From a virus (taxonomy: Duplodnaviria; Heunggongvirae; Uroviricota; Caudoviricetes), in the IMG/VR virus record IMGVR_UViG_2531839666_000019: a DNA stretch of 38,533 nucleotides; one strand, written 5' to 3'. The translations under genes and the position numbers were made by a program. Of this stretch, positions 5,753 to 36,037 are shown one piece after another; position 1 is the first letter of the stretch, and every line of letters starts with the position of its first letter. The notes under the pieces were generated by a model, which saw nothing but the letters and a program-made list of their open reading frames with translations, ran no database searches and was not told the DNA's origin.

Positions 5753-6090
5753 AGCAGTTCCTGAGTACGGGGTTGTCCGTCTGAGCCTTTCCAGCTCACC
5801 CGGAGCGTAAGATGTTCGCCGTCGACGGCGGGTTTAACCGACATAAGCTGGCAGCGGGGTTCCCAGCGCCTGATGGCATCGACGGATTCGCGAACCACAT
5901 GCGGAATGGCCCGGTCGACAGGCCAGTCGATATAAAGGTGCAGATTGCTGCCGAACTCTGGGCGATGCGGGTCGCTGCCGCGGGGAGTCCGCAGGATGAT
6001 CTGGATGGACTGCTGGATATCATCCAGCCCCCGGACGATTTCGCCGGGAGCCTGCAGAGCCGGTTGCCAGAATACTGAGGTCGTTTTCAT
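5743..6090 (-). CDS. baseplate protein, GPW/gp25-like (Mu gp46-like)
   Basis: 115-aa ORF with typical size and position; N-terminus MKTTSVFWQPALQAPGEIVRGLDDIQQSI. Confidence 0.7.
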   Translation of the reverse strand: MKTTSVFWQPALQAPGEIVRGLDDIQQSIQIILRTPRGSDPHRPEFGSNLHLYIDWPVDRAIPHVVRESVDAIRRWEPRCQLMSVKPAVDGEHLTLRVSWKGSDGQPRTQELLWR

Positions 6091-6161
6091 GGGGGCAGTA
6101 TTGCCCCAGTAAGAAAAGAACGATATTAAAGGGATTTAAAAAGGAGTTATTGATACGTTTG

Positions 6162-7037
6162 TTAAATTACGAAAACCTTGACGATAAGTTCTCCGTCTTT
6201 AGAAACTCTCTTCCCCTCAAGATCAGATTTCAGCCCCTCAGAATTAGTAATAAGCTGGTTCGGATCGTAGATGACACACCAGAGATTTTTGCAATCAGAG
6301 TGCCGACGATAATGCTCTATATCGATAATAAGTTCATCGCCGATTTTCTTTGCATGAGAACGATCACGAACAATTTTGGTTTCCAGTACTAATTTATGCG
6401 CAGGTAACAAAAAATCCATTCGAGTACTTGAACCAGCGTAACTTGGAGTAAACTCTTCTGGGCGGATGTCCTGAACCCATGGTCTGAGCAATGCATGGAG
6501 AAGGTCTTGCACGTCATATTCATTGCTAAAAGATAATGACTGGCTTCCTTTTCGCCTATGAGTAAGTGGATGCATTGCTCGCTGTAAGCCTTTGACCAGC
6601 CTTTCCAGTAAGTTCTCAACTTTTTCTGGCATTACTGGCTGTTGATAAGTAATTATGGTCTCTGGGTAATCCATATTGTGTGACGGGATGTGGCCTTCAG
6701 GCAACACTCGACCAAAACGATAATATCTAAGTCCATTCTCTTGTAACACAGCTTCAATTCTGTCTCGTTTTTCCTTCCATTCTGCATATTCGGGAGTACC
6801 TTCTTTTGGAGGTAAATCCATAAACTCCTCAATTACTCCGCCCAGAACTGCCAGACTATCTGTATCTGGATCTTGCCCTGCAAGAAATAACCAGTCTTTC
6901 CATTTTGTACTATGAGATCCTGCCGGAGGGTTTCCTGGTGCTCCCGAAGTAAGAAATAACGTATCTAAAGCTGCATGAGAGCCTGAGTTAGCAATGACAT
7001 CGCCAACTACTTTACATAAGGATCTTGATAACCGCAT
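6162..7037 (-). CDS. inserted accessory gene in the baseplate block; candidate PD-(D/E)xK-fold nuclease-like protein
   Basis: 291-aa ORF, visibly AT-richer than flanking genes, flanked by 71-bp and 81-bp spacers; C-terminal region contains D-x11-E-x-K (MDFLLPAHKLVLETKIV). Confidence 0.5.
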   Translation of the reverse strand: MRLSRSLCKVVGDVIANSGSHAALDTLFLTSGAPGNPPAGSHSTKWKDWLFLAGQDPDTDSLAVLGGVIEEFMDLPPKEGTPEYAEWKEKRDRIEAVLQENGLRYYRFGRVLPEGHIPSHNMDYPETIITYQQPVMPEKVENLLERLVKGLQRAMHPLTHRRKGSQSLSFSNEYDVQDLLHALLRPWVQDIRPEEFTPSYAGSSTRMDFLLPAHKLVLETKIVRDRSHAKKIGDELIIDIEHYRRHSDCKNLWCVIYDPNQLITNSEGLKSDLEGKRVSKDGELIVKVFVI

Positions 7038-20233: not shown

Positions 20234-21727
20234 TCAGCCGTTGTCACGCTCATGCAGACGCCCCCAGATATTTGCCACAAAGAGAATGCGGGCCAGCCGC
20301 TCCTGCAGATCGTCCGTGTTCATCTGAGGGTAGAGCTCCGCCAGTTCGCCCAGCAGCTCAGACGGGTTAACCCCGTTTTCGACCCGCCTGAACAGAGGTG
20401 CCAGGACGGGTTCCAGCGTGCCATTTAACACACCTCCGTTCATCAGAATGTCCAGCGCGTCGTCAAGCTGCTGTTGTGCATCATGATCGGCGCTTATCGC
20501 CTCGGCAAACTCCGCAGGCACTGCCCCGTCCGCAACCGGTGCATCAGAGAGGTCAATATCCCCCTCCTGCAGCTGGTACTCCCGCATGAAGTACTGCGGG
20601 GTCAGGCGTAGTCCCGCGCGGGTGAGTTTTTCGTCGCGGGTGGCACGGGTGTCATCAATGGCCTCCTGTTCCCACATGGCCCAGACCGGACACGGCACAT
20701 CGCCGAAGTTCAGGGTGACCACCGTTCTGATGACCTGATTCACTGCCGCCTGAATGATGTCCGCATCCGCATCGCGGATATCAGCCGTCACCTCCAGCCC
20801 GGCCTGTGCAGAGGCCTTGTTACTGTTCGCTTCCGTGGTCTGATTCTGACCGAGTAATGCAATGGAGATCTCACTGCGTGACAGCGTGATCAGCTCGCGG
20901 AATACCTCGCTGCTGTCCGCCTTGCCATCCGCGGCTTTGAGTTCAATGCTGCTGTCATCGGGGATGGCGGCCACAGCGTCCTCCACCATCTGCTCCATGG
21001 AGTCCAGCAGTTTTTCAATCTCTGCATCATTTGCACCCCTCGGGTGCTTACCGATCACCCACGGGGAGCCAAACTTTTCGGCAAAGCGGAGCCAGAATTT
21101 CATCCCGCCTTTCTTGAAGGCGACCGGCCAGAAGCACATGGACAGGTCCGGGAAACCGTAAGGATTGTCATACGAGGCATCCTGTGCCGGCACCACGAAT
21201 TTTGACGGTGACAGCAGCTCACCCTCCACACCCGCATCACGCGCCCGGAAGCGCAGGCAGTTGTCCGTATCAAACTGAAACCACTCAGGCGGTTTGCCGA
21301 CAATATCCGTCACCGCCCACGCCCTGACCGAACGGCCCCACATGATTTCACAGGGCTGATACCCGTAGAGCACGGCATCGCTCATCTCACCGATGATGCG
21401 GGACAGATCCAGATCGTCGAGCATGTCGCGGATGAAACGGAAGACCCGGGCAGAAGCGTGACCGCGCTCCAGTCCACGCTCCAGCGATTTGAGCGCTGCT
21501 TTACGTCTGCGGATACAGCCTCCGACCAGCGGGTCGGTGCGCAGTTCGCGGTAGATACGGATATCCCGTCCCTGAGCCTTGAGAATGGGATCAGGATTGG
21601 GCAGATACATGCCCAGTCCGTAAAAGTCGATCGCGCGGCTGCGGGAGGCAATCTGCGCGGTCAGTGATTTCTGAGGCTCAGAAAAAGCAACAAATTCATC
21701 GGGTGAAACCCAGATACCCCTCGCCAT
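20234..21727 (-). CDS. portal protein (Mu gp29-like, DUF935-like)
   Basis: 497-aa ORF directly after the terminase large subunit, typical size. Confidence 0.8.
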   Translation of the reverse strand: MARGIWVSPDEFVAFSEPQKSLTAQIASRSRAIDFYGLGMYLPNPDPILKAQGRDIRIYRELRTDPLVGGCIRRRKAALKSLERGLERGHASARVFRFIRDMLDDLDLSRIIGEMSDAVLYGYQPCEIMWGRSVRAWAVTDIVGKPPEWFQFDTDNCLRFRARDAGVEGELLSPSKFVVPAQDASYDNPYGFPDLSMCFWPVAFKKGGMKFWLRFAEKFGSPWVIGKHPRGANDAEIEKLLDSMEQMVEDAVAAIPDDSSIELKAADGKADSSEVFRELITLSRSEISIALLGQNQTTEANSNKASAQAGLEVTADIRDADADIIQAAVNQVIRTVVTLNFGDVPCPVWAMWEQEAIDDTRATRDEKLTRAGLRLTPQYFMREYQLQEGDIDLSDAPVADGAVPAEFAEAISADHDAQQQLDDALDILMNGGVLNGTLEPVLAPLFRRVENGVNPSELLGELAELYPQMNTDDLQERLARILFVANIWGRLHERDNG

Positions 21728-23321
21728 CAGAATCCCTCCAGCATACGGGCCGCCTGACGACGACGGCGTGAGCTTGCCTTCACCGGCCCTTTGTTAATTT
21801 CACGGCTGGCGAAATACGCCAGCGCCAGTGCGATGGCTGAATCCCCGTGGCGTTTACCACCGTCAGCCTTTGCTTTTGAGCGTTGCTCCGGTACGCGGGG
21901 GACACCGTTCACCACCTGAACGGCCCGCAGGTCATCCAGTGTGTCTTCATCCTTTGGTAAGTCCACCAGGTTACCGTCTTCCAGTGCAGCTTTGACCGGA
22001 GGCATATGCTCCCTGTACCAGCCTTCGGTTGGCATCACCTGCTGAATCCGGCTGGAGCCGTAGCGCTGCATGGCGTATTCAGCCAGATAGGCACCATTAC
22101 CACGGGCATCAAACGCTGCACCCAGCAGACCGGGCAGGCCATCCATCAGATACCAGGTGATTTGCTCCTGCTGTCTGAACGGCACGTTACGCAGCTCCAG
22201 TACGAATGGCACGCGTCGTACCAGGTTCTTCTCCTGCAGCAGGGGATAGTCCACCGACAAATCACCGCTACGGCCAAAGTCGCGCCCCAGGAAAGAGCGG
22301 GCATCAGTGGGGAGTGCCTCCAGCAATGGTTTCAGATACTCATCAAGCCAGTCCTGCGTCTCGCGGAAGCGAACCTCATCAGACAGCAGTTCATAACCTT
22401 CCTTGCAGGTCAGACGCAATACCGGCGTATCAGCGGACATGCGGGACTCTATCAGGGCACGGGACAGCCAGGCACCGCCACCGTTGGCCGGAATACAGTC
22501 AAGCTCTTCGGATGCGCCGGCACCGTAGAATTTGTACACCGATGCCATCCAGGCCTGCTCGGAGGCCTCCGACCATTCCTTCCCGGTGCGCAGACAGACG
22601 CGCCGGAACAGCCCCTCAGATACGGCTTCCCGGAAAGTGATGCGATGTATGCTGCCTCCCTGACGTCCGGCACGGATATCCCCGATAAGCGTATTGAACG
22701 GATTGTCGTCACCGTTATGGGTGGAGATAACGTGTACCTTCCCCCCCAGATAAGCATCGCCAGCGCCGCTTTCAGCAGTTCGTCCAGTTGCTCATGGAAC
22801 GCCGCTTCGTCGATAACAATAATACCCTGACGGCCACGCAGGTTAGACGGGCGGCTGGAGAGCGCAACAATACGAAAGCCGGAGTCAGGAAATTTGATGG
22901 TGTAAGTCCTGATGTGTTTGTCGTCGTCGTCCTCTTCCCAGAATCCTTCTTCAATTTCACTGGCCGCATAGTTGAATGCCCGTGCCCACATCGCACACGC
23001 CTGAATGTATTCGACGGTCATGTCTTGGTTATAAGCGATGTAATACACATTCATCCCGCCTGCTGGCGCAGAAGAGGCGGCGGTCAGTACGTTATCGGAT
23101 GCCTCAGCCCATGTAATACCGGTACGACGGCTCTTTTCTATCACCTTAAGCGGAGAGGTGTCTGCCACCCAGCGCTGCTGGTAAGGCAACAGAACGGGAG
23201 GGGCATCCAGCGCCGAGGTATCAGGCAAAACGGGAGCAAGGTTATTCCTCCCGTCCATGGGACTCATCCCTTCGGGGCCGCCGCCAGCGGCGTTTAAAAT
23301 CACTCCGGATGATTTTGTCAT
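21727..23321 (-). CDS. terminase large subunit (Mu gp28-like), frame broken at a G7 run (plus-strand C7 at 22741-22747)
   Basis: Two overlapping ORFs (22452-23321 and 21727-22548); adding one G to the run gives a continuous protein of about 531 aa through WGGKVHVISTHNGDDNPFNTLIGDIRAGRQGGSIHRITF. Confidence 0.8.
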
Positions 23322-25147: not shown

Positions 25148-25865
25148 AACTGCTGCCTCCCCATGTGAGATATCGCGGTGCCAGTTCGCGCAGGATGCGC
25201 TGCGGATAATGGCGGTTCTCCCGCCAGCTGGCCGCATTGCGTCCGGCATTCACCGTGGCGACATGTCCGAACCAGCGGGTGCTGTCCAGACCTTTCTGTG
25301 ATGCAAGCCGCCTGTCCCGTTGTACCCAGCCCAGACCACCGTTATAGCCTGACAGTGTCATGGCCATACGCTCGCAGTCGTTGGCGGCGCTGACGCGCTG
25401 CCACAGCCAGCGGTCATAGCTGACCAGCGCCCGGATGGCCCATGCCGGATTAAACGGCTCACGGCTGTTAAGTCCCGGCATCAGCTGACTTATCCAGTCG
25501 GCAGTGGCAGGCATGAACTGCGCCAGTCCCTGAGCACCAGCCGGCGAGACCGCATCAGGTCGCCAGCCGCTTTCCTGATGCAGTTGCGCGGCGAAATCTG
25601 CCACCGGCGCAGACAGTCCCCATTCAAGCCGGGCATTACGGATCACATCATCGCGATACTGCAGCGCAGCCTGCGGAGGCTGCGCTGCGCGGGCCTGACT
25701 GAAGAAGCCACCACACCAGAGCAGCCAGACAATCACCAGGTTGCCAGCAAGCTGCCACCAGAAGCTGTATTTATCGTTACGTGGTTCGCCGTGTCTGATG
25801 GCGGTTACGCCCAGACCAAAGGCGAACAGAATAATGAGGGTGATTTGAGGCCAGTTCATGGTCAC
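25131..25865 (-). CDS. endolysin, lytic transglycosylase (SLT domain) with N-terminal signal-anchor-like helix
   Basis: Motif AQLHQESGWRPDAVSPAGAQGLAQFMP (catalytic Glu-Ser); N-terminal hydrophobic ITLIILFAFGLGVTAI. Confidence 0.8.
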   Translation of the reverse strand: MTMNWPQITLIILFAFGLGVTAIRHGEPRNDKYSFWWQLAGNLVIVWLLWCGGFFSQARAAQPPQAALQYRDDVIRNARLEWGLSAPVADFAAQLHQESGWRPDAVSPAGAQGLAQFMPATADWISQLMPGLNSREPFNPAWAIRALVSYDRWLWQRVSAANDCERMAMTLSGYNGGLGWVQRDRRLASQKGLDSTRWFGHVATVNAGRNAASWRENRHYPQRILRELAPRYLTWGGSSCVASG

Positions 25866-26212
25866 AGTCCTGTTGCCACAGCCAGACAGACCGCTGCAAC
25901 AATCAGTGCACGGCGGATTAACGCAGCAGAAAATACAAGGTGAAGGCCGGTCTGCACAGGGAAACGCCCTTCAGCCATCAGCCTGTCTTCATGTTTCAGG
26001 TACTGACCGGGACGGGCTTTGGGGAAGAGCGAACGGTCAAGCCAGTAACCCAGCACTGCTGCCAGCGTGATGAGTGCCAGCTTGTAGATCACAACAGGCA
26101 ACTGCTGTGGCGAGACCAGAGCGATGGTGCCCAGCAACAGCACTGAGGTCAGCAGCCAGCCGCTGAGGCGAGGTTTTTTAACAGGGGGAATGAATTTTTT
26201 CAGGCTTTTCAT
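25862..26212 (-). CDS. holin-like membrane protein
   Basis: Three predicted TM helices; start trimmed to the ATG at 26212, which is preceded by AAGGAGA; ATGA overlap with the endolysin start. Confidence 0.6.
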   Translation of the reverse strand: MKSLKKFIPPVKKPRLSGWLLTSVLLLGTIALVSPQQLPVVIYKLALITLAAVLGYWLDRSLFPKARPGQYLKHEDRLMAEGRFPVQTGLHLVFSAALIRRALIVAAVCLAVATGL

Positions 26213-26342
26213 GTGTGTCTCCTTGTTTGGTGGAGACAGCATCACAAATGTGGCGGGATACGGATTTTAAAGCGCGTTATAAGTGTTCGCAGAGGGAAGC
26301 GACCAGAATGGTCGCACACAAAACATAGGGGAGGCAAGCACA

Positions 26343-26666
26343 ATGACTGAACCGAAACAGTCTGGTATTAAAAAAGGGTTCCTCTTTGGGAGCAGAATCG
26401 GAGAGCAGAATAAAACTTACACGCTAAGCTTGGATGCATGTTGTCCAACCGAAGCGATTATAGAGCTGAAAAACGTTCTGGTTGCACTTGAAGAGAGAAG
26501 AAGTCATTTCGCCAGCGGAGAAAACAACGTCATGCTAATTGGCGATGTGGCGGCGACATCACGATATAAAACCGCACCTAATCCTGCGATTCAGTTATCC
26601 TTCGACCAACGAATACTGGAAGCGGAATCAGCAGTTCCCAGAACGGTTCGTCCTCACCAGTCTTAA
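26343..26666 (+). CDS. hypothetical protein
   Basis: 107-aa ORF from the ATG at 26343, preceded by GGGGAGG; divergent from the late operon; overlaps the 3' end of the 26578-27153 gene, so one of the two may be shorter or spurious. Confidence 0.35.
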   Translation: MTEPKQSGIKKGFLFGSRIGEQNKTYTLSLDACCPTEAIIELKNVLVALEERRSHFASGENNVMLIGDVAATSRYKTAPNPAIQLSFDQRILEAESAVPRTVRPHQS

Positions 26667-27153
26667 CTGGGGCTGCTTCACCCGACCAGTAAAGCCAAGC
26701 ACGGTGATACAGTTCCAGCACCGGGCAATCACTGTTCAATAACCTCATATCTCCGCGATGCACCTGCTCATTTGTGATGACTTCATATATCGGTGCCGTT
26801 CTTATTTCGTCTTCGCCTCTCTCATCAGCCAGTAATTCCCTGAACTTCCTGACTTCACTCAGATGCTGACAGGCAAACAGTGACTGATAGCGGGAAGGTT
26901 TATCAGGAAAATGGCTACGGCGAACTAACTCAAACACCAGACCGACCAGCAGACTTCTGCTGATTCCACTGTCATCTTCCATTTTAGGGCCGGGGTTATA
27001 GAGATAGTTATACCCGTGACTCGAAAGGCCATTGGGATACATCTGATGAAGAAAAGCGGCCAGTTCTGGCATTTCAGGCTCGTATTTTCCGGTAATTACA
27101 TGACAAGGCGAAGGCAGACGACTAGCGGAATCAAGTGTGTAATACGTTCCCAT
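26578..27153 (-). CDS. hypothetical protein (accessory/cargo)
   Basis: 191-aa ORF with AAGGA upstream of the ATG; no recognisable motif. Confidence 0.45.
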   Translation of the reverse strand: MGTYYTLDSASRLPSPCHVITGKYEPEMPELAAFLHQMYPNGLSSHGYNYLYNPGPKMEDDSGISRSLLVGLVFELVRRSHFPDKPSRYQSLFACQHLSEVRKFRELLADERGEDEIRTAPIYEVITNEQVHRGDMRLLNSDCPVLELYHRAWLYWSGEAAPVKTGEDEPFWELLIPLPVFVGRRITESQD

Positions 27154-27561
27154 TCAGAAAACAATCCTTATCGAACAAACACTGCACGTAGGTAATGCAT
27201 CCAGTAAATCGCGTTAATAGAAATCATGTATCTCAAAACTTCACTCTGAACTCTGACAGTGAAAGAACGACCAGCCCGGTACCCGAACTCCGGGCTGGTC
27301 ATCGCCCCACAGGAATGCACTGTGAGCCGACCGAGGTTCAGTCAGTCTCGCGAGACCAGACTAGCCTGCCATATTTTTATAATTATAAAAGGGTTACAGA
27401 TTATGAAAATGCAGACATTCCCCATCGCTCCATGGATTGGTTGTAAACGCCGCCATGCCAGACATATTCTGGCCGATGTTTCCTAGCACGCACGAATATG
27501 AGGCAACTGACGAGAATAAATGATGCGTCAGAATGAACCGTCGACACCGTGATTTCAGGTT

Positions 27562-28173
27562 TCAAAAATCTGGAGAAGGTATATCTATCTGACCGACGTT
27601 TCGTAACCACATCTCTTGCTTTGTTTCTTTATTGGTTCGGGCGATATCATTAGCATTGTATCTGCATGTTTTAACCGCAACCTCACGAACTCGTGCTATA
27701 GGAGTATTTGTGTAGAATTTAAGATCTTCCTCTACCGCTCGTATGGCGATAAGCCCTCCACTCTGAAAACCGCTGGTTACTTTTAAAAGATCAACTCCTT
27801 GGTTATAAACGGCATTACATACGTTAGGGAACTCATCTTCTACAGTTTTGGGGATCATCAGCATATCAGGAAGACCCTGTAACACGTTATCTTCCTTTGG
27901 CCTCCATGCCCTTCCCAAAAAAGCTGTTATAGGTTGTGGTGTAGAAAGAAATGCCAATTCTATATAAAACAAACCACTGTAGTGATCGCGTAACGAATAG
28001 ACTAGTAAATGATCTTTTCCAGTTTTACTTGCATTGCTAAGTTTTATATCAAATGGTTTTTTCTGGTACTTAAGCAATCCATCAACTCCCGCATAATAAT
28101 GCTTTGAAACAGCAACAGAAAGTTGATGTACTTGGTTCGGATAATCTGTTCTATATCGTTTAATTAGCCCCAT
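27562..28173 (-). CDS. hypothetical protein, AT-rich cargo gene
   Basis: 203-aa ORF, visibly AT-richer than the phage backbone; no recognisable motif. Confidence 0.5.
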   Translation of the reverse strand: MGLIKRYRTDYPNQVHQLSVAVSKHYYAGVDGLLKYQKKPFDIKLSNASKTGKDHLLVYSLRDHYSGLFYIELAFLSTPQPITAFLGRAWRPKEDNVLQGLPDMLMIPKTVEDEFPNVCNAVYNQGVDLLKVTSGFQSGGLIAIRAVEEDLKFYTNTPIARVREVAVKTCRYNANDIARTNKETKQEMWLRNVGQIDIPSPDF

Positions 28174-28232
28174 AATAGCCTCGCAGTTATTTTCTATTTC
28201 AAAATATAACGATATTTACTATCTGGAGTGTT

Positions 28233-28269
28233 TTGTTGGTCAAGTAATAGAGCTCTACATGGGGCGGTC
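28233..28269. repeat. 37-bp direct repeat, left copy flanking IS1
   Basis: TTGTTGGTCAAGTAATAGAGCTCTACATGGGGCGGTC, identical to 29038-29074. Confidence 0.9.
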
Positions 28270-28284
28270 GGTAATGACTCCAAC

Positions 28285-28788
28285 TTATTGATAGTGTTTT
28301 ATGTTCAGATAATGCCCGATGACTTTGTCATGCAGCTCCACCGATTTTGAGAACGACAGCGACTTCCGTCCCAGCCGTGCCAGGTGCTGCCTCAGATTCA
28401 GGTTATGCCGCTCAATTCGCTGCGTATATCGCTTGCTGATTACGTGCAGCTTTCCCTTCAGGCGGGATTCATACAGCGGCCAGCCATCCGTCATCCATAT
28501 CACCACGTCAAAGGGTGACAGCAGGCTCATAAGACGCCCCAGCGTCGCCATAGTGCGTTCACCGAATACGTGCGCAACAACCGTCTTCCGGAGCCTGTCA
28601 TACGCGTAAAACAGCCAGCGCTGGCGCGATTTAGCCCCGACATAGCCCCACTGTTCGTCCATTTCAGCGCAGACAATCACATCACTGCCCGGCTGTATGC
28701 GCGAAGTTACCGACTGCGGCCTGAGTTTTTTAAGTGACGTAAAGTCGTGTTGAGGCCAACGCCCATAATGCGGGCTGTTGCCCGGCAT
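28285..28788 (-). CDS. insB: IS1 InsB (transposase reading frame, normally expressed as InsAB by frameshift)
   Basis: 167-aa ORF matching IS1 InsB. Confidence 0.9.
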
Positions 28789-28982
28789 CCAACGCCATTC
28801 ATGGCCATATCAATGATTTTCTGGTACGTACCGGGTTGAGAAGCGGTGTAAGTGAACTGCAGTTGCCATGTTTTACGGCAGTGAGAGCAGAGATAGCGCT
28901 GATGTCCGGCGGTGCTTTTGCCGTTACGCACCACCCCGTCAGTAGCTGAACAGGAGGGACAGCTGATAGAAACAGAAGCCAC
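28707..28982 (-). CDS. insA: IS1 InsA
   Basis: 91-aa protein [40 protein letters not shown]. Confidence 0.95.
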
Positions 28983-29010
28983 TGGAGCACCTCAAAAACA
29001 CCATCATACA

Positions 29011-29985
29011 CTAAATCAGTAAGTTGGCAGCATCACCTTGTTGGTCAAGTAATAGAGCTCTACATGGGGCGGTCAAAACACGGGCATAACGACCATCGGG
29101 GTTTATGTTGATGTAACAAGTTTTCCCTTTAACACCATAAGATTCAGGTATTATTGCCTGTGTAGACACCGTGAATTTAAGGGTATGCCAGCCCGATTTT
29201 TGCTTGTAGCTTGAAACCGAATGGAAATCATCTGAGTACTTATTTAACCCTGGAAACATGCTGCGTAATGCTGGGATGGAATCTTCTATTATTTTGTCGT
29301 TGGTTTTAATGTTAAAAACGCTGGTTTCAGTAGATGCTACTGCTTTAGCATTTCCCCATTTACCAGCGAACACAATCATTCCCACGAAAAATATTGCGAC
29401 AAGAACTAACGCTCCCCCCAACACTACTACATGAGGCTTCCGGCTTCTGGTTGGTACAGTCGCGACTGATTTTGCCCCGCTGTCCGATGGAGGTGATAGA
29501 GTTTTACTCTCATCACGAATATTCAGCAGATCATCAAAATAACCAAACACAGCCTGCAACTGCTCTTTGTCCAGGCCTTTAAGATGGGTTGTACCGAAAT
29601 GCTTCAGACAGTATCTGTCACGGTCAAGACGATACCTAGGGTCAGTAAGCACCATTATTTTGCTGACCAGAAGATTACAGTCCTTCATATTCTGGATCTG
29701 TTGTGCATATCTCTGGAGGATCTCAACCGCACCATGATAATCAGCCGCAGTCATTTCATTAACTGTTTTGGTATTAAGTTTCGTGTGGATCGTCATCCAT
29801 AGTTCGCGCTTACTTTCCCCCAGATCAACCAATTCATCCATCAATCTGTGTAAATCGCGTTTTTGCAGCAACGAAATTGGTTGCTGGGCAGAGGGAAGTA
29901 TGTCAGCAGAATAGTTATGAATGGTAACATCACCGCTGACAACGTTACCCACATCTCCGTTAACTGTTTGCTTCTCTTTACTCAT
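29011..29985 (-). CDS. single-pass membrane protein co-transcribed with the repressor; 3' end replaced by IS1 sequence
   Basis: 324-aa ORF; N-terminal GDVGNVVSGDVTIHNY motif, TM helix VVVLGGALVLVAIFFVGMIVFAG; last 8 codons and stop lie inside IS1; without IS1 the frame would continue leftward to a stop near 28194. Confidence 0.6.
   Translation of the reverse strand: MSKEKQTVNGDVGNVVSGDVTIHNYSADILPSAQQPISLLQKRDLHRLMDELVDLGESKRELWMTIHTKLNTKTVNEMTAADYHGAVEILQRYAQQIQNMKDCNLLVSKIMVLTDPRYRLDRDRYCLKHFGTTHLKGLDKEQLQAVFGYFDDLLNIRDESKTLSPPSDSGAKSVATVPTRSRKPHVVVLGGALVLVAIFFVGMIVFAGKWGNAKAVASTETSVFNIKTNDKIIEDSIPALRSMFPGLNKYSDDFHSVSSYKQKSGWHTLKFTVSTQAIIPESYGVKGKTCYININPDGRYARVLTAPCRALLLDQQGDAANLLI
29038..29074. 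repeat. 37-bp direct repeat, right copy flanking IS1
   Basis: Identical to 28233-28269. Confidence 0.9.
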
Positions 29986-30443
29986 TTTCTCTTTGTATTT
30001 TTGTTCATTATTCCACCTGTTCCTATGGTTACGTTACCTTTGATAACATTCCCCAGAACATCTCCATGAATAACCTGTTCCGCCCGTTCTCTGGAGGAGC
30101 CAGTCGTCAATGCCGACAAAACTGAACCTTTGACTTGTAACGGTGCTTGCCGGTAGTGCTGAAGTAACTCCATTTCATCACGTGATAAAGTTATACCTGA
30201 TGATTCCCCAGTAAGAATGAACTGTACGTTGGCCCCAATTCTTGCAAAGGCTGCAAGTAACTCACCTCCGGGAACTGCAACCCCTCGTTCATATTTCCCC
30301 CACATTTCTCTTGAAACGCCACAAAGGGCTGCTACTTCAGCCTGCTTGAGTGATAACCGCGAACGCTCAGCTTTGAACCGCGACGCGCAAAGAGAATCAA
30401 AATTCACATAAACCTCATTGACAATGAGAACAATAGTTCTCAT
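29982..30443 (-). CDS. XRE-family HTH repressor (CI-like, functional analogue of Mu c)
   Basis: HTH segment LSLKQAEVAALCGVSREMWGKYERGVAVPGGELLAAFARIGANVQFILTG; divergent from the Ner-like gene. Confidence 0.75.
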   Translation of the reverse strand: MRTIVLIVNEVYVNFDSLCASRFKAERSRLSLKQAEVAALCGVSREMWGKYERGVAVPGGELLAAFARIGANVQFILTGESSGITLSRDEMELLQHYRQAPLQVKGSVLSALTTGSSRERAEQVIHGDVLGNVIKGNVTIGTGGIMNKNTKRK

Positions 30444-30493: not shown

Positions 30494-30682
30494 ATGACTT
30501 CCGAACAAGTTAAAACTCTCTTCCGTCAGCGTGGTATCACGTTTACCCGCTGGGCCGAAGAACACGGCTACAGCCGCAATGAGGTCTATCGTGTTCTCAA
30601 TGGACAGACCAAAGCTCGTTACGGCAAAGCCCATGAAATTGCCGTAAAGCTGGGATTAAAACCCACGTCAAATGCGGCATAA
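30494..30682 (+). CDS. Ner-like/Cro-like small DNA-binding protein
   Basis: 62-aa protein with the GY...L.G....G..IA..LGL pattern resembling Ner-family regulators; first gene of the rightward early operon. Confidence 0.6.
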   Translation: MTSEQVKTLFRQRGITFTRWAEEHGYSRNEVYRVLNGQTKARYGKAHEIAVKLGLKPTSNAA

Positions 30683-31968: not shown

Positions 31969-33738
31969 ATGAATGCTGCCCTGACTGAACGACTGGTTTA
32001 TGTCGCCCGCGCGGCACGTGACGCGGGGCATGGTAAACGCGGTGCAATATACGACGCTGCCTGTGCTGAACTTGGCATGTCCCGCGCCACTCTGCTGCGC
32101 AGGCTGAAGGAGGTATCTGTGACTGATAAACGCAAAAAACGCGCCGATGCCGGGCGCAGCGCCCTGACCCGCGACGAAGCCGCGCTGATATCTGCCACAC
32201 TGCGTGAGGCCACCCGCAAGAACGGTAAGCGTCTCTATTCCATCGCAGATGCAGTGGAAACCCTGCGGGCTAACGGCTTTATCTCCGCAGGCAGAACAGA
32301 TGAAACCACCGGTGAGTTTTTCCCGTTGTCCGAAGATGCCATCAGTCGTGCCTTGCGTAACTATGGCCTGCACCCGGAACAACTGGATGCCCCTGCGCCG
32401 CATACCGAAGTGGCCAGTCTGCATCCCAATCACGTCTGGCAGATTGATGCCTCGCTCTGCACGCTTTACTACCTGAGCAATGGACACAAAGGGCTGCAGG
32501 TGATGGACAGCGCGAAGTTCTACAAGAATAAACCCGCTAACCTTGCCCGTATCGCCAGTGACCGCGTGTGGAGTTACGAGATTACCGACCATGCCAGCGG
32601 CTGGATTTACGTTGAGTATGTGACGGGTGCGGAATCCGGTGAGAACCTGTGTTCTGTGCTTATCAACGCCATGCAGGAGCGTGGCGGCGCAGACGTGCTG
32701 CACGGCGTGCCGAAAATACTCTATCTCGACCCCGGCTCGGCAAACACCGCGGGTATGACGAAAAACATGTGCCGCTCACTGGGCATCGACCTGATAGCGC
32801 ACAAGCCGCATAACGCCCGCGCCACCGGACAGGTGGAAAAGGCGCGTGACATTATCGAACGCAAGCTGGAGCCGGGTCTGAAATTCCGGCCGGTTCACAG
32901 TCTGGAAGAACTCAACGCGCTGGCCGCGAAATGGCGTAGCCACTTTAACGCAACAGCTGTTCACAGCCGCCACGGTAAAACCCGCACGGATATCTGGCTG
33001 AAGATTACTGCTGAGCAGCTGAAAAAAGCGCCTTCCGTTGAGGTATGCCGTGAACTGGCTGTGGCGACACCAGAACTCCGCAAAGTCACGCCAAAACTTC
33101 GTGTCTCGTTCCGGGGCACTGAATTTGACGTATCAACGGTACCGGGCGTACTGGTTGGTGAAAAACTGATGATTACCCGTAACCCATGGCGCAGCGATGT
33201 GGCACAGGTGGTTCTGACCGGTGAGGACGGCCACGAGACGTTCTTCCTGGTCGAAGAGGTCAGAAAGAACGAGTTTGGCTTTGCTGAAGGCGCGGCGGTA
33301 TTTGGCGAAAGTTACAAAGCCCTGCCGGAAACACCGGCACAGACGGCGGCAAAAGAAACCGAAGCGCTGGTCACCGGTACAGACAACGCCGCAGATGCAG
33401 CTGCCGCACGCAAGGCGAAGGCGCTGCCGTTCGGCGGGCGGCTTGACCCGTATAAACATATTGATGACGCCACACTTCCGGCCTGTATACCGAAGCGCGG
33501 TCAGGTCTCTGATGTACGCAGACCGCGCACTGAACAACGTCCCATGACTCATGTGGAGGCCGCGAAAGCCCTGCGCGATAAGTTCAGCGCCGACGGCCTT
33601 ACCTGGACGCCGGAACATTACCGCCAGTTAACGGCACAGTACCCGGACGGCGTACCGGAAGCCGCACTGGATGAAGTAATGGCCACGCTGACCACGCCGG
33701 CCCGCAGCAGCGTTATCAGCATTGTTAACGGCAACTGA
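31969..33738 (+). CDS. DDE transposase (Mu A-like, integrase-core family)
   Basis: 589-aa protein with DDE-type residues in HVWQIDAS and YLDPGSAN; followed by an overlapping AAA+ partner gene. Confidence 0.8.
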   Translation: MNAALTERLVYVARAARDAGHGKRGAIYDAACAELGMSRATLLRRLKEVSVTDKRKKRADAGRSALTRDEAALISATLREATRKNGKRLYSIADAVETLRANGFISAGRTDETTGEFFPLSEDAISRALRNYGLHPEQLDAPAPHTEVASLHPNHVWQIDASLCTLYYLSNGHKGLQVMDSAKFYKNKPANLARIASDRVWSYEITDHASGWIYVEYVTGAESGENLCSVLINAMQERGGADVLHGVPKILYLDPGSANTAGMTKNMCRSLGIDLIAHKPHNARATGQVEKARDIIERKLEPGLKFRPVHSLEELNALAAKWRSHFNATAVHSRHGKTRTDIWLKITAEQLKKAPSVEVCRELAVATPELRKVTPKLRVSFRGTEFDVSTVPGVLVGEKLMITRNPWRSDVAQVVLTGEDGHETFFLVEEVRKNEFGFAEGAAVFGESYKALPETPAQTAAKETEALVTGTDNAADAAAARKAKALPFGGRLDPYKHIDDATLPACIPKRGQVSDVRRPRTEQRPMTHVEAAKALRDKFSADGLTWTPEHYRQLTAQYPDGVPEAALDEVMATLTTPARSSVISIVNGN

Positions 33739-34915
33739 GGAGGGAAACATGCTGGTACTGAAGCAGCAACTGAAAGAGGCCCGTATTCCACAGGCGGTGG
33801 TGGCGAGAGCTGTCGATGTTTCTGAGGCCACGCTGGCCCAGATTGTGAATCATAACGCGTGGCCCCGCACCAGCCCCGGAGAAGTGCGCCGGCGTCTTGC
33901 GTCCTGGCTGGAAAGTCAGGGGATTGATACAGCGAAGAGTTTTGATGCTGTACAGGGCGCGGCCACTCCCCGTACAGCGGGTACCACAGATAAAACGAGC
34001 CTCAGTGAGGAAGAGAATATGTTACTCAAAAAACAGGTGTTATTCCCGGCAACCAAAAAAGCGTTTGGTCTTTTCCGTGACCCGTTCGCCGACGAAGCCA
34101 TGCAGGGTTCTGATGATGTGTTCACCACCCCGGACATTCGCTACGTGCGTGAGGCGTTGTACCAGACAGCCCGTCATGGTGGGTTTATGGCCGTCATCGG
34201 TGAGTCCGGTGCGGGTAAATCCACGCTGCGCCGCGACCTGACTGAACGTATCAACCGCGAGAATGCGCCGGTAATTGTTATCGAGCCATACATCATCGCT
34301 ATGGAAGACAACGATGTGAAAGGGAAAACCCTGAAGGCAGCAGCTATTGCCGAAGCCATTATCAGTACCATCGCACCACTGGAAAGCATCAGACGCAGTC
34401 AGGACGCCCGCTTTCGCCAGTTGCATCGCGTCCTGAAAGACAGCAGCCAGGCGGGGTTCAGCCACGTTCTGGTGATTGAGGAGGCCCACAGTCTGCCCAT
34501 TCCGACACTGAAACACCTCAAACGCTTTTTTGAGCTGGAGTCCGGTTTCAAAAAACTGCTGTCCATCGTGCTGATTGGCCAGCCGGAACTGGCGACAAAA
34601 CTGTCTGAACGCAATATGGAAGTCCGTGAAGTCGTTCAGCGCTGTGAGGTGGTCGAACTTCTGCCTCTGGACAATAACCTTGAAGAGTTTCTGACGTTCA
34701 AACTGCAACGGGCAGGTAAACAACTGACGGACATTATGGACGCCAGTGCAGTGGATGCCATACGTGCCCGCCTGAGCAATCCGGGAAGTCATCGTAAAAA
34801 TATGGTCAGCCTGTTGTATCCGCTGGCCGTCAGTAACCTGGTGATAGCCGCCATGAATCTGGCCGCTGAAATCGGGGTTCCACAGGTCAACGCTGACGTT
34901 GTCAAAGGGGTTTAA
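33722..34915 (+). CDS. transposition ATPase (Mu B/TniB-like AAA+)
   Basis: Walker A VIGESGAGKST and Walker B HVLVIEEAH; N-terminal HTH. Confidence 0.8.
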   Translation: MLTATEEGNMLVLKQQLKEARIPQAVVARAVDVSEATLAQIVNHNAWPRTSPGEVRRRLASWLESQGIDTAKSFDAVQGAATPRTAGTTDKTSLSEEENMLLKKQVLFPATKKAFGLFRDPFADEAMQGSDDVFTTPDIRYVREALYQTARHGGFMAVIGESGAGKSTLRRDLTERINRENAPVIVIEPYIIAMEDNDVKGKTLKAAAIAEAIISTIAPLESIRRSQDARFRQLHRVLKDSSQAGFSHVLVIEEAHSLPIPTLKHLKRFFELESGFKKLLSIVLIGQPELATKLSERNMEVREVVQRCEVVELLPLDNNLEEFLTFKLQRAGKQLTDIMDASAVDAIRARLSNPGSHRKNMVSLLYPLAVSNLVIAAMNLAAEIGVPQVNADVVKGV

Positions 34916-35214: not shown

Positions 35215-35745
35215 ATGGCAAAAAGTACAAAAGGGGCAAAACGTATCAAGTCCGCAGCGGCACTCTGGGTACCGGGGACACGCGAAGAGGTCATTGAGGG
35301 AATCAGACTGCTCGGTGACGCACAACGTGAACTGGTCAGGGCTGAAACAGAAATGAATGACGCCATTGGCGATATCACCGCACGTTATGCCCCGCTCACC
35401 GAGAGCCTAAAAAAACGCATGGCCGAACTGCAGTCCGGTATTCAGACATGGTGTGAGGCACACCGTGATGAACTGACCGGCAACGGGAAGGTGAAGTTCG
35501 CTAACCTCACCACCGGCGAGGTGCAGTGGCGAAACCGTCCGCCATCAGTCAGTATCCGTGGAGCGGATAATGTTATTGAACTACTGAGACGTCTGGGGCT
35601 TGAGCGCTTTATTCGTGTAAAAGAGGAAATAAATAAAGATGCCATTCTGAATGAAAAAGAGGCCGTGAAAAATATTCCCGGTATTACCATAAAAAGTGAT
35701 ATTGAGGATTTTTCAATAATTCCTTTTGAGCAGGATGTGCAGTAA
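35215..35745 (+). CDS. gam: Gam-like host-nuclease inhibitor protein (Mu Gam family)
   Basis: 176-aa protein with N-terminal coiled coil and overall pattern of the Mu Gam family. Confidence 0.65.
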   Translation: MAKSTKGAKRIKSAAALWVPGTREEVIEGIRLLGDAQRELVRAETEMNDAIGDITARYAPLTESLKKRMAELQSGIQTWCEAHRDELTGNGKVKFANLTTGEVQWRNRPPSVSIRGADNVIELLRRLGLERFIRVKEEINKDAILNEKEAVKNIPGITIKSDIEDFSIIPFEQDVQ

Positions 35746-35842
35746 ACACACCACGTTAATTATTTAATAAAAACATTTTCTTTTTTATTCCGGCGTCAGC
35801 GCCGTGGGCTTCTGCACGCCGGAAACAGAGGAGAATTAAATT

Positions 35843-36037
35843 ATGATATTTAAATGTATTCAGTGCGAGAGGGATATAACAGCCCTGCGTTTTCACAGCG
35901 CCATCGCCGTGATGTCCGGTAAGTACCACGTACCTGCAGTACGTGTCACCCTGGTCTGTCCGTACTGCAGCCAGCATTTTTCGGCGGACGTGCCCGTCAT
36001 GGAATTCTTCCGCCCTGACAGGGAGGACGCGCAATGA
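35843..36037 (+). CDS. small zinc-ribbon protein
   Basis: 64 aa with two CxxC pairs (CIQC ... CPYC). Confidence 0.45.
   Translation: MIFKCIQCERDITALRFHSAIAVMSGKYHVPAVRVTLVCPYCSQHFSADVPVMEFFRPDREDAQ

Follow-up and report, generated by a model that had tools for sequence, protein, structure and literature searches.

A DDE-less transposase core behind the repressor of a BcepMu-like Escherichia coli prophage, and the exchangeable hotspot in which it lies

The stretch of DNA examined here (the window) is the 38,533-nucleotide (nt) IMG/VR virus record IMGVR_UViG_2531839666_000019 (Caudoviricetes) which, judged by its gene content, is a BcepMu-like transposable prophage of Escherichia coli. Leftward from about 26245, the minus strand encodes a holin, an SLT endolysin and Mu-type head and tail proteins; the plus strand, from 30494, encodes a BcepMu gp16-family protein, an IclR-like helix-turn-helix (HTH) protein, a DUF3102 protein and a DDE transposase of 589 amino acids (aa). 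Between these two blocks the minus strand carries the repressor gene, the gene of a membrane protein that has 328 aa when intact, a copy of IS1, a gene for a 203-aa protein and a gene for a 191-aa DUF2441 protein. The gene tables of phages KS10 and BcepMu follow the same logic, with the repressor (gp17), a few hypothetical genes on the same strand and then the holin (PMC2628397). A sequence-only reading of the window had marked positions 26213-29985, downstream of the repressor, as cargo and as a likely site of an undescribed system. The interval does lie downstream of the repressor, and the three minus-strand open reading frames (ORFs) named there (26578-27153, 191 aa; 27562-28173, 203 aa; 29011-29985, 324 aa) all have conserved homologues and are real genes. 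A variable, lysogen-side hotspot with uncharacterised genes is present as proposed, but it is neither one locus nor one system, and one of the genes belongs to the conserved equipment of the immunity module. The 203-aa protein, a transposase core that has lost its catalytic triad, is the item that we consider worth following up.

The 203-aa gene (27562..28173, minus strand) encodes a stand-alone RNase H-like (rve-type) core without the DDE triad. Direct searches gave no match in Pfam (no rve hit at E ≤ 0.1), PHROGs, NCBIfam, PADLOC or PDB sequences, and the nature of the protein was revealed only by structure prediction and profile comparison. The AlphaFold2 model (pLDDT 91.2) has the RNase H-like catalytic-core fold, and the family profile aligns to residues 148-361 of the prophage's own transposase, TnpA (hhalign, 96.4%, E = 1.2e-9), which is encoded at 31969..33738 on the plus strand, next to an ExeA-like AAA+ protein (33722-34915), and is named ‘integrase catalytic domain-containing protein’ in RefSeq. 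The two proteins are also paired by plain blastp (E = 4.9e-11) and by a local hidden Markov model search of all window ORFs, which matched only the 203-aa protein itself and TnpA (E = 1.2e-11). In a tblastn comparison with 50,697 phage records, only transposase A genes were found, all from transposable phages (PhiKM, KP12, B3, Ps59 and Fc22). The earlier statement that the genes of this interval match no Mu-like function therefore does not hold for the 203-aa protein, a paralogue of the transposase core.

The catalytic residues of TnpA, D160 (WQID), D254 (YLDP) and E290 (GQVE), correspond in the 203-aa protein to position 19 (L/I/S/V/M), P108 and G139/G140. The predicted fold has them where expected, with position 19 on beta-1, P108 closing beta-4 and G139/G140 opening the long helix that follows. 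Not one of about 190 relatives has an acidic residue at any DDE-equivalent position, and the surrounding motifs are kept; three full-length transposases retrieved with the same profile retain D at the first two positions, which are those scored in them. Because new invariant residues (S23, Q37, K39, R62 and S134-G135-F136) surround the former active site, the pocket of the modelled protein is best described as remodelled and conserved, not decayed. The flanking DNA-binding and multimerisation domains are absent, the protein corresponding to the core segment of TnpA only. Compared with the DDE transposases (BcepMu/B3-type TnpA, MuA) and the cores of TnsB, IstA and retroviral integrases, it thus has L/I/S/V, P and G/A/S in place of the triad, lacks the N-terminal DNA-binding and C-terminal domains as well as a Pfam rve match, and is encoded by a separate small gene that resides in a repressor operon or in islands. 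In the contexts inspected, no transposon ends or partner transposition genes occur near the 203-aa genes except those of the resident phage itself.

The family comprises 549 clusters (defined at 50% identity) among 1.84 billion representative proteins, 97 of them at E ≤ 1e-30. Most members have about 200 aa; some relatives of 490-740 aa carry C-terminal TPR repeats (P0115, P0153, P0179 and P0182), one of 1184 aa has GLUG motifs as well, and the family profile also retrieves full-length transposases of 563-569 aa at 1e-18 to 1e-21. In E. coli prophages free of the IS1 copy, the 203-aa gene starts 20 base pairs (bp) after the 328-aa gene, and the same position is seen in Salmonella, in Serratia and in a metagenomic relative. 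In a distant BcepMu-like element (L028), whose transposase and DUF3102-like protein are 46% and 33% identical to those of the window, the dead-core gene overlaps the repressor stop by 11 nt. Such a position fits expression in the lysogen. Distant relatives (36-55% identical) are found in accessory islands, beside genes for ParE, RelB/YafQ, SymE, HEPN, an Eco57I/MmeI-like enzyme, RhuM, HNH, integrase fragments and ParB/RepB proteins of plasmid partition. Members of the family are scarce: IMG/VR yielded 4 loci and a one-genome-per-species scan 6, too few for context statistics. In the annotation sources consulted and in full-text literature searches, we met no account of an ancient, separately encoded family of DDE-less cores, whether from the immunity regions of prophages or from defence-type islands.

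It might be supposed that these genes are decaying, functionless leftovers: the prophage would be defective, the region debris of recombination and the 203-aa ORF a piece of a transposase. The copy in the window is indeed damaged by IS1, by a frameshift in the terminase large-subunit gene and by the presence of a dam remnant (see below). We nevertheless regard this explanation as very improbable: the several hundred clusters of the 203-aa family agree in length (about 200 aa), share invariant residues and give a confident compact fold; the DUF2441 and 328-aa proteins are conserved down to 32-45% identity; and the IS1-free copies are intact in 27 genomes.

The repressor gene (29982..30443, minus strand; HTH_31/HTH_3) overlaps with its stop the start of the membrane-protein gene by 4 nt. 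The sequence-only reading had described a repressor-coupled membrane protein of 324 aa; the coupling stands, but the 324-aa ORF (29011..29985, minus strand) is an IS1 chimera, consisting of residues 1-316 of the 328-aa protein followed by 8 IS1-encoded residues, as seen in the alignment to the IS1-free locus. The intact protein corresponds to phrog_10002. As its gene overlaps that of the repressor and accompanies it in 127 of the 128 matching E. coli genomes, we assign the 328-aa protein, on these grounds, to the immunity module and not to the cargo in which it had been included. The pairing is also found in relatives from Salmonella, Serratia, Morganella and Yersinia, down to 44% identity.

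The 328-aa protein has a single strongly hydrophobic segment (about residues 186-206), and its residues 19-147 align to positions 14-143 of the Flk model (NCBIfam PRK10715, E = 1.6e-11). Flk (Fluke/RflH), a flagellar secretion switch regulator of Salmonella and E. coli, likewise has a cytoplasmic N-terminal part anchored by one membrane segment (PMC13344023). The match scores 44 bits against a curated cut-off of 353, so by this measure the protein is not an Flk orthologue. Whereas Flk is tail-anchored, in the 328-aa protein the membrane segment is followed by an external C-terminal domain (about 120 aa) with two invariant Cys. This domain is homologous (blastp E = 2e-17) to a 177-aa predicted lipoprotein, encoded on its own directly after a different repressor in KP12-type prophages. 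An extracytoplasmic domain that always lies behind a repressor would suggest a function at the cell envelope, for example in the exclusion of incoming phage or in signal sensing. A likeness between the repressor C-terminus and the membrane-protein N-terminus (a GDVGNV..G.VTI-like motif) was rejected, as it scored below the shuffle maxima (60 vs. 72 and 40 vs. 57); the repressor end (window 30040-29985) is VIHGDVLGNVIKGNVTI and the membrane-protein start (29985-29920) is TVNGDVGNVVSGDVTI. The diverged pair from Serratia (L007) shows the same sort of likeness, which could be an interaction tag or chance.

The IS1 recognised in the sequence-only reading is a complete element of 768 bp (28270..29037, minus strand), 98-99% identical to IS1 copies and with terminal inverted repeats, insA (28707-28982) and insB (28285-28788) all present (Pfam InsA and DDE_Tnp_IS1). 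It is flanked by perfect direct repeats of 37 bp at 28233-28269 and 29038-29074 (TTGTTGGTCAAGTAATAGAGCTCTACATGGGGCGGTC), a sequence present as a single copy in IS1-free prophages. The usual target-site duplication of IS1 is about 9 bp, which the repeat seen here far exceeds. Without IS1, this 4.1-kb region occurs at 99.8-100% identity in 27 complete E. coli genomes (e.g., B7A and 503025), the element being absent from all of these otherwise identical prophages. Left of IS1, the window differs from strain 503025 (L001) by a single base in 2.47 kb, one T fewer in an intergenic run at about 27373.

The insertion has had two consequences. It swaps the last 12 residues of the 328-aa protein for 8 encoded by IS1, with the stop codon inside the element; the displaced 3' end of the gene, as placed by alignment to the IS1-free copy of strain 503025, is at 28194..28269 (minus strand) and comprises the stop and last 12 codons (28194-28232) together with the left 37-bp repeat. 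Since a conserved C-terminal motif (KYRF/YILK) is deleted in this way, the window's copy of the protein may be impaired. The insertion has also placed 805 bp (the 768-bp element and one 37-bp repeat) between the repressor operon and the 203-aa gene. As IS1 insertions are polar, the element probably uncouples the 203-aa gene from the repressor promoter in the window and lowers its expression. Both the truncation of the membrane protein and the separation of the 203-aa gene from the operon count against the earlier interpretation of the interval.

Beyond the repressor and membrane-protein pair, the content of the region changes from prophage to prophage, and the exchangeable hotspot is confined to the stretch between the 328-aa gene and the holin (26246 to about 28190). 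The comparison of related prophages that had been proposed, to see whether the region is a variable hotspot, found one within these limits. Where E. coli genomes share this repressor and membrane-protein pair, the slot is occupied in 96 by a plus-strand P-loop gene together with the gene of a 193-aa membrane protein and in 27 by the arrangement of the window; elsewhere it holds a 247-aa P-loop protein with 134-aa and 71-aa genes or, in E. coli A24 (L003, 2999-3547, minus strand), a 182-aa protein behind the 328-aa gene with a weak PADLOC match to ‘2TM effector’ (E = 3.7e-5). The slot of Salmonella Java has the 203-aa gene only, beside a 329-aa gene and with no DUF2441, and that of Serratia, beside a 327-aa gene, has a 206-aa homologue and a 146-aa gene. 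KP12-type prophages have DUF2441 and dam with another immunity module and no 203-aa gene. The same small set of cargo seems to be reshuffled. A family of 134-146-aa proteins is found after the 206-aa dead core in Serratia (L007, 6391-6831), next to the DUF2441 gene of a Limnobaculum island (L018, 4501-4941; 68% identical) and, in a diverged form (28%), in the hotspot of another E. coli prophage (L002, 3263-3667).

The arrangement in the window is a mosaic in its own right. Between the holin and 27480 the sequence shares about 90% identity with KP12, then breaks off inside the start of dam and continues with the 203-aa gene. The 5' remnant of dam (DNA adenine methylase), about 25 codons in length, lies with the recombination junction at 27403..27480 on the plus strand (tblastn places residues 1-23 of KP12 Dam at 27403-27471), and 27480 is where nucleotide homology to KP12 ends. 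Positions 27260-27480 are about 88% identical to sequence in the dam region of some 500 E. coli genomes. The remnant and the junction fall within the 409 bp that separate the DUF2441 gene from the 203-aa gene. Neither the remnant (27403-27480) nor a conserved plus-strand ORF at 26343-26666, described below, had been noticed in the sequence-only reading.

According to that reading, the 203-aa, 191-aa and membrane proteins could together form one undescribed exclusion or defence system driven from the repressor promoter. All of the genes share the repressor's strand and are bounded by the repressor on one side and the lysis genes on the other, and the complete set is conserved at 99.8-100% in the 27 E. 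coli genomes. Co-orientation alone does not tie the distal genes to the repressor, however, because the late operon is on the same strand. The 203-aa gene is found without DUF2441 and DUF2441 without the 203-aa gene, so the hotspot genes are, by their distribution, independent pieces and not one system: they assort independently in Salmonella Java, Serratia and KP12-type prophages, the 96 E. coli prophages with the same repressor and 328-aa pair hold other cargo, and the spacer between the two genes contains the dam remnant and junction. We give a single system very little credence. A two-gene module of the 203-aa and DUF2441 genes, considered on account of their co-occurrence on one 9.3-kb contig, was likewise dropped once further contexts showed them apart. 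Composition does not single out the cargo either. The interval is, as had been noted, lower in G+C (0.389-0.484) than the late operon (0.566), with values of 0.389 for the 203-aa gene, 0.484 for the DUF2441 gene and 0.432 for the membrane-protein gene, but the low-G+C block runs on through the repressor (0.448) and so extends past the cargo.

The 191-aa protein (26578..27153, minus strand) is a DUF2441 protein (PF10386, 31.8 bits, E = 1.7e-7; gathering cut-off 25 bits) encoded by an independent accessory gene, and all 27 of its homologues carry PF10386. It has an ADP-ribosyltransferase (ART)-like fold. The catalytic motif of such enzymes has R/H on beta-1, S/Y on beta-2 and E on beta-5; among the DUF2441 homologues, R88 and E173 never vary and Y123 seldom does, and all three map to predicted strands or next to them. 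The comparison included DUF2441 itself (PF10386; PDB 2aua, BC2332) and the ART-fold enzymes DarT, RES toxins, Arr and AcrF11. The suggestion that none of the three proteins has an assignable motif is thus overturned by the DUF2441 match, by the homology of the 203-aa protein to the window's transposase and by the Flk-like N-terminal region of the membrane protein.

The contexts of DUF2441 are varied: KP12-type prophages, the Limnobaculum island and a lambdoid prophage, where it sits on the opposite strand with the lysis genes to one side and the terminase genes to the other. In KP12-type and window-type prophages it has an upstream region of its own of about 250-400 bp. Toxin-antitoxin systems of the ART type (DarTG, RES-Xre, MbcTA) have a conserved adjacent antitoxin, whereas DUF2441 has none across the contexts seen: its neighbours are a convergent ORF of 107 or 109 aa in BcepMu-like prophages, an unrelated 70-aa ORF in the lambdoid prophage, and 146-aa and 113-aa genes in Limnobaculum. 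The likeliest role of DUF2441 is that of an accessory gene for a putative NAD+-using modifying enzyme. The ADP-ribosylating enzymes Alt and Mod of phage T4 modify host proteins during infection, and DUF2441 (possibly with others of these genes) might similarly serve the lytic cycle, ADP-ribosylating host proteins early or late without acting in the lysogen. The ART-like fold, the location beside the holin on the same strand and the lambdoid gene between lysis and terminase genes are all compatible with this. We consider it improbable, given that the lambdoid gene is on the strand opposite to the late genes, that DUF2441 has its own upstream region, and that just 33 out of at least 585 E. coli genomes harbouring such a prophage carry it, so that it is not a core lytic function.

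The ORF convergent with DUF2441 encodes 107 aa (MTEPKQ...; 26343..26666, plus strand), is divergent from the holin, overlaps the DUF2441 3' end by 89 nt and is unannotated in RefSeq. An ORF of 107-109 aa accompanies DUF2441 always in BcepMu-like prophages; it is open, with 60-80% protein identity, in L005, KP12 (L013) and L015, and changes at third codon positions are in excess in two of the three comparisons. Neither Pfam nor PADLOC recognises the protein. The ATG of the ORF stands 131 bp away from that of the holin, and in other prophages the P-loop gene starts at the same place; descent of the ORF as a remnant of the P-loop gene was rejected, since the proteins are unrelated and the ORF is conserved only beside DUF2441.

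The left boundary of the hotspot is formed by the holin gene (25862..26212, minus strand; Pfam Holin_2-3, E = 1.5e-40; phrog_1528), the first gene of the late/lysis operon. The start at 26212 proposed from the sequence agrees with RefSeq, which annotates the 351-bp version in identical prophages. On the other side, the divergent early operon begins with the gene of the small DNA-binding protein of the BcepMu gp16 family (30494..30682, plus strand; NCBIfam TIGR04111, E = 4e-27). No RNA family was found when the window was scanned with Rfam. In the terminase large-subunit gene (21727-23321, minus strand), one nucleotide is missing at about 22737-22746 in comparison with KP12, which leaves two overlapping ORFs; in strain 503025 the gene is annotated as a single intact one of 1542 bp. 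The deletion may mean that the prophage is defective in this copy, or it may stem from an error in sequencing. Further patches of low G+C (0.43-0.45) are present inside the prophage at 6001-7000 and 35501-36000, possibly other cargo or tail-fibre regions. The KP12 record used for comparison (OM835952.1, ‘Klebsiella phage KP12 clone KP12_2’) is filed under Vequintavirinae; its sequence is BcepMu-like, with a Mu-type transposase, portal and holin, and the filing probably applies to a different clone submitted together with it.

In our preferred explanation, the region consists of an immunity operon, a slot behind it and a separately acquired segment. The operon couples the repressor translationally to a 328-aa single-pass protein with an Flk-like cytoplasmic N-terminal part, one membrane segment and an external two-Cys domain. 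In the slot right behind that gene, the 203-aa paralogue of the transposase core would be transcribed with the repressor in lysogens, and it might interfere with Mu-type transposition, whether of incoming related phages or of a resident transposase that leaks, in the role of a poison subunit or decoy that enters or titrates transposase complexes. The KP12-like segment beside the holin (DUF2441 with its own upstream region, the convergent 107-aa ORF and the dam remnant) was acquired separately and is taken to have its own regulation. We put the probability of this explanation as a whole, including its mechanism, at roughly 0.4; its anatomical part, taken alone, we hold with high confidence.

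The decoy or poison-subunit role is suggested by four features taken together: the protein consists of the core alone, catalysis is lost while the scaffold is kept, the nearest kin are transposable-phage transposases, and the gene belongs by position to the repressor operon. We propose this role tentatively, as something that may well turn out otherwise. Proteins of this sort have precedents. Tn5 Inh and the KP repressor of P elements share domains with their transposases, cannot carry the reaction through and act by poisoning or titrating the working enzyme. Both are products of the transposase gene and almost the same protein as the transposase, whereas the 203-aa protein is a distant paralogue (about 23% identity) with a gene of its own, contains the core only, has its catalytic residues replaced and belongs to a family found also outside transposable elements. 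Inh resembles it in having no N-terminal DNA-binding part; inhibition by the 203-aa protein is proposed by analogy. Transposase-derived inhibitors are known for Tn5 and P elements; the support for a possible inhibitor role here is the domain logic and the location in the repressor operon.

There are precedents for the location as well. The rexAB genes of lambda are exclusion genes in a prophage repressor operon. In the Pseudomonas transposable phage Fc02, which is of the same phage type as the window prophage, exclusion genes of the olg1/gene 10 region are transcribed with the repressor (PMC9936078). The genes studied here are similarly adjacent to the repressor, through the 4-nt overlap of the repressor and 328-aa genes, the 20-bp gap between the 328-aa and 203-aa genes in IS1-free copies and the 11-nt overlap of the repressor and dead-core genes in the distant element, and co-transcription in the lysogen appears likely from this arrangement. 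The likeness to RexA and RexB is one of position: there is no similarity in sequence or fold, and what lies here is a single-pass membrane protein and a dead transposase core.

Several observations weigh against the anti-transposition explanation. A scan for promoter and terminator consensus sequences found no more sites than in shuffled sequence. PADLOC gave no match to a known defence protein for the 328-, 203-, 191- or 107-aa proteins. The 203-aa protein is so diverged from the resident transposase core (only about 23% identity) that it represents an old family and not a recent copy; its remodelled pocket, with new invariant residues, could carry a different activity; and many relatives, some of them fused to TPR repeats, lie outside transposable phages, which fits a broader role unconnected with transposition. 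These last points lead to the alternative that the family is a general defence or accessory-island protein in which the RNase H-like scaffold serves as a nucleic-acid- or protein-binding sensor or adaptor, the slot in the prophage being merely convenient and lysogen-expressed. The toxin-antitoxin, HEPN, restriction, RhuM, HNH, integrase-fragment and ParB/RepB neighbours of the distant relatives, the TPR fusions and the invariant residues lining the former active site all agree with it. We find it doubtful, as the closest detectable relatives of the 203-aa protein are transposases of transposable phages, two or more diverged BcepMu-like lineages have a dead-core gene in the repressor operon, and neither a conserved partner gene nor a known effector domain was seen in the family.

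Whatever the activity of the 203-aa protein, the locus shows cargo being exchanged between related prophages, with the dam remnant and the junction still visible, and it shows that an IS insertion is able to disconnect cargo from the repressor promoter. Transposable phages replicate solely via their transposase; a mimic of its core that is made together with the repressor would therefore amount to a second layer of immunity or exclusion, acting at the replication step. More broadly, the 203-aa family could represent widespread anti-transposition immunity proteins which, from prophage repressor operons and defence islands, poison the transpososome of incoming or awakening transposable phages; we think this generalisation unlikely as matters stand. 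If true, it would assign a function to several hundred unannotated protein clusters and would establish a principle of defence and immunity through molecular mimicry of the invader's replication enzyme, in a simple system that sets one 203-aa protein against one phage enzyme.

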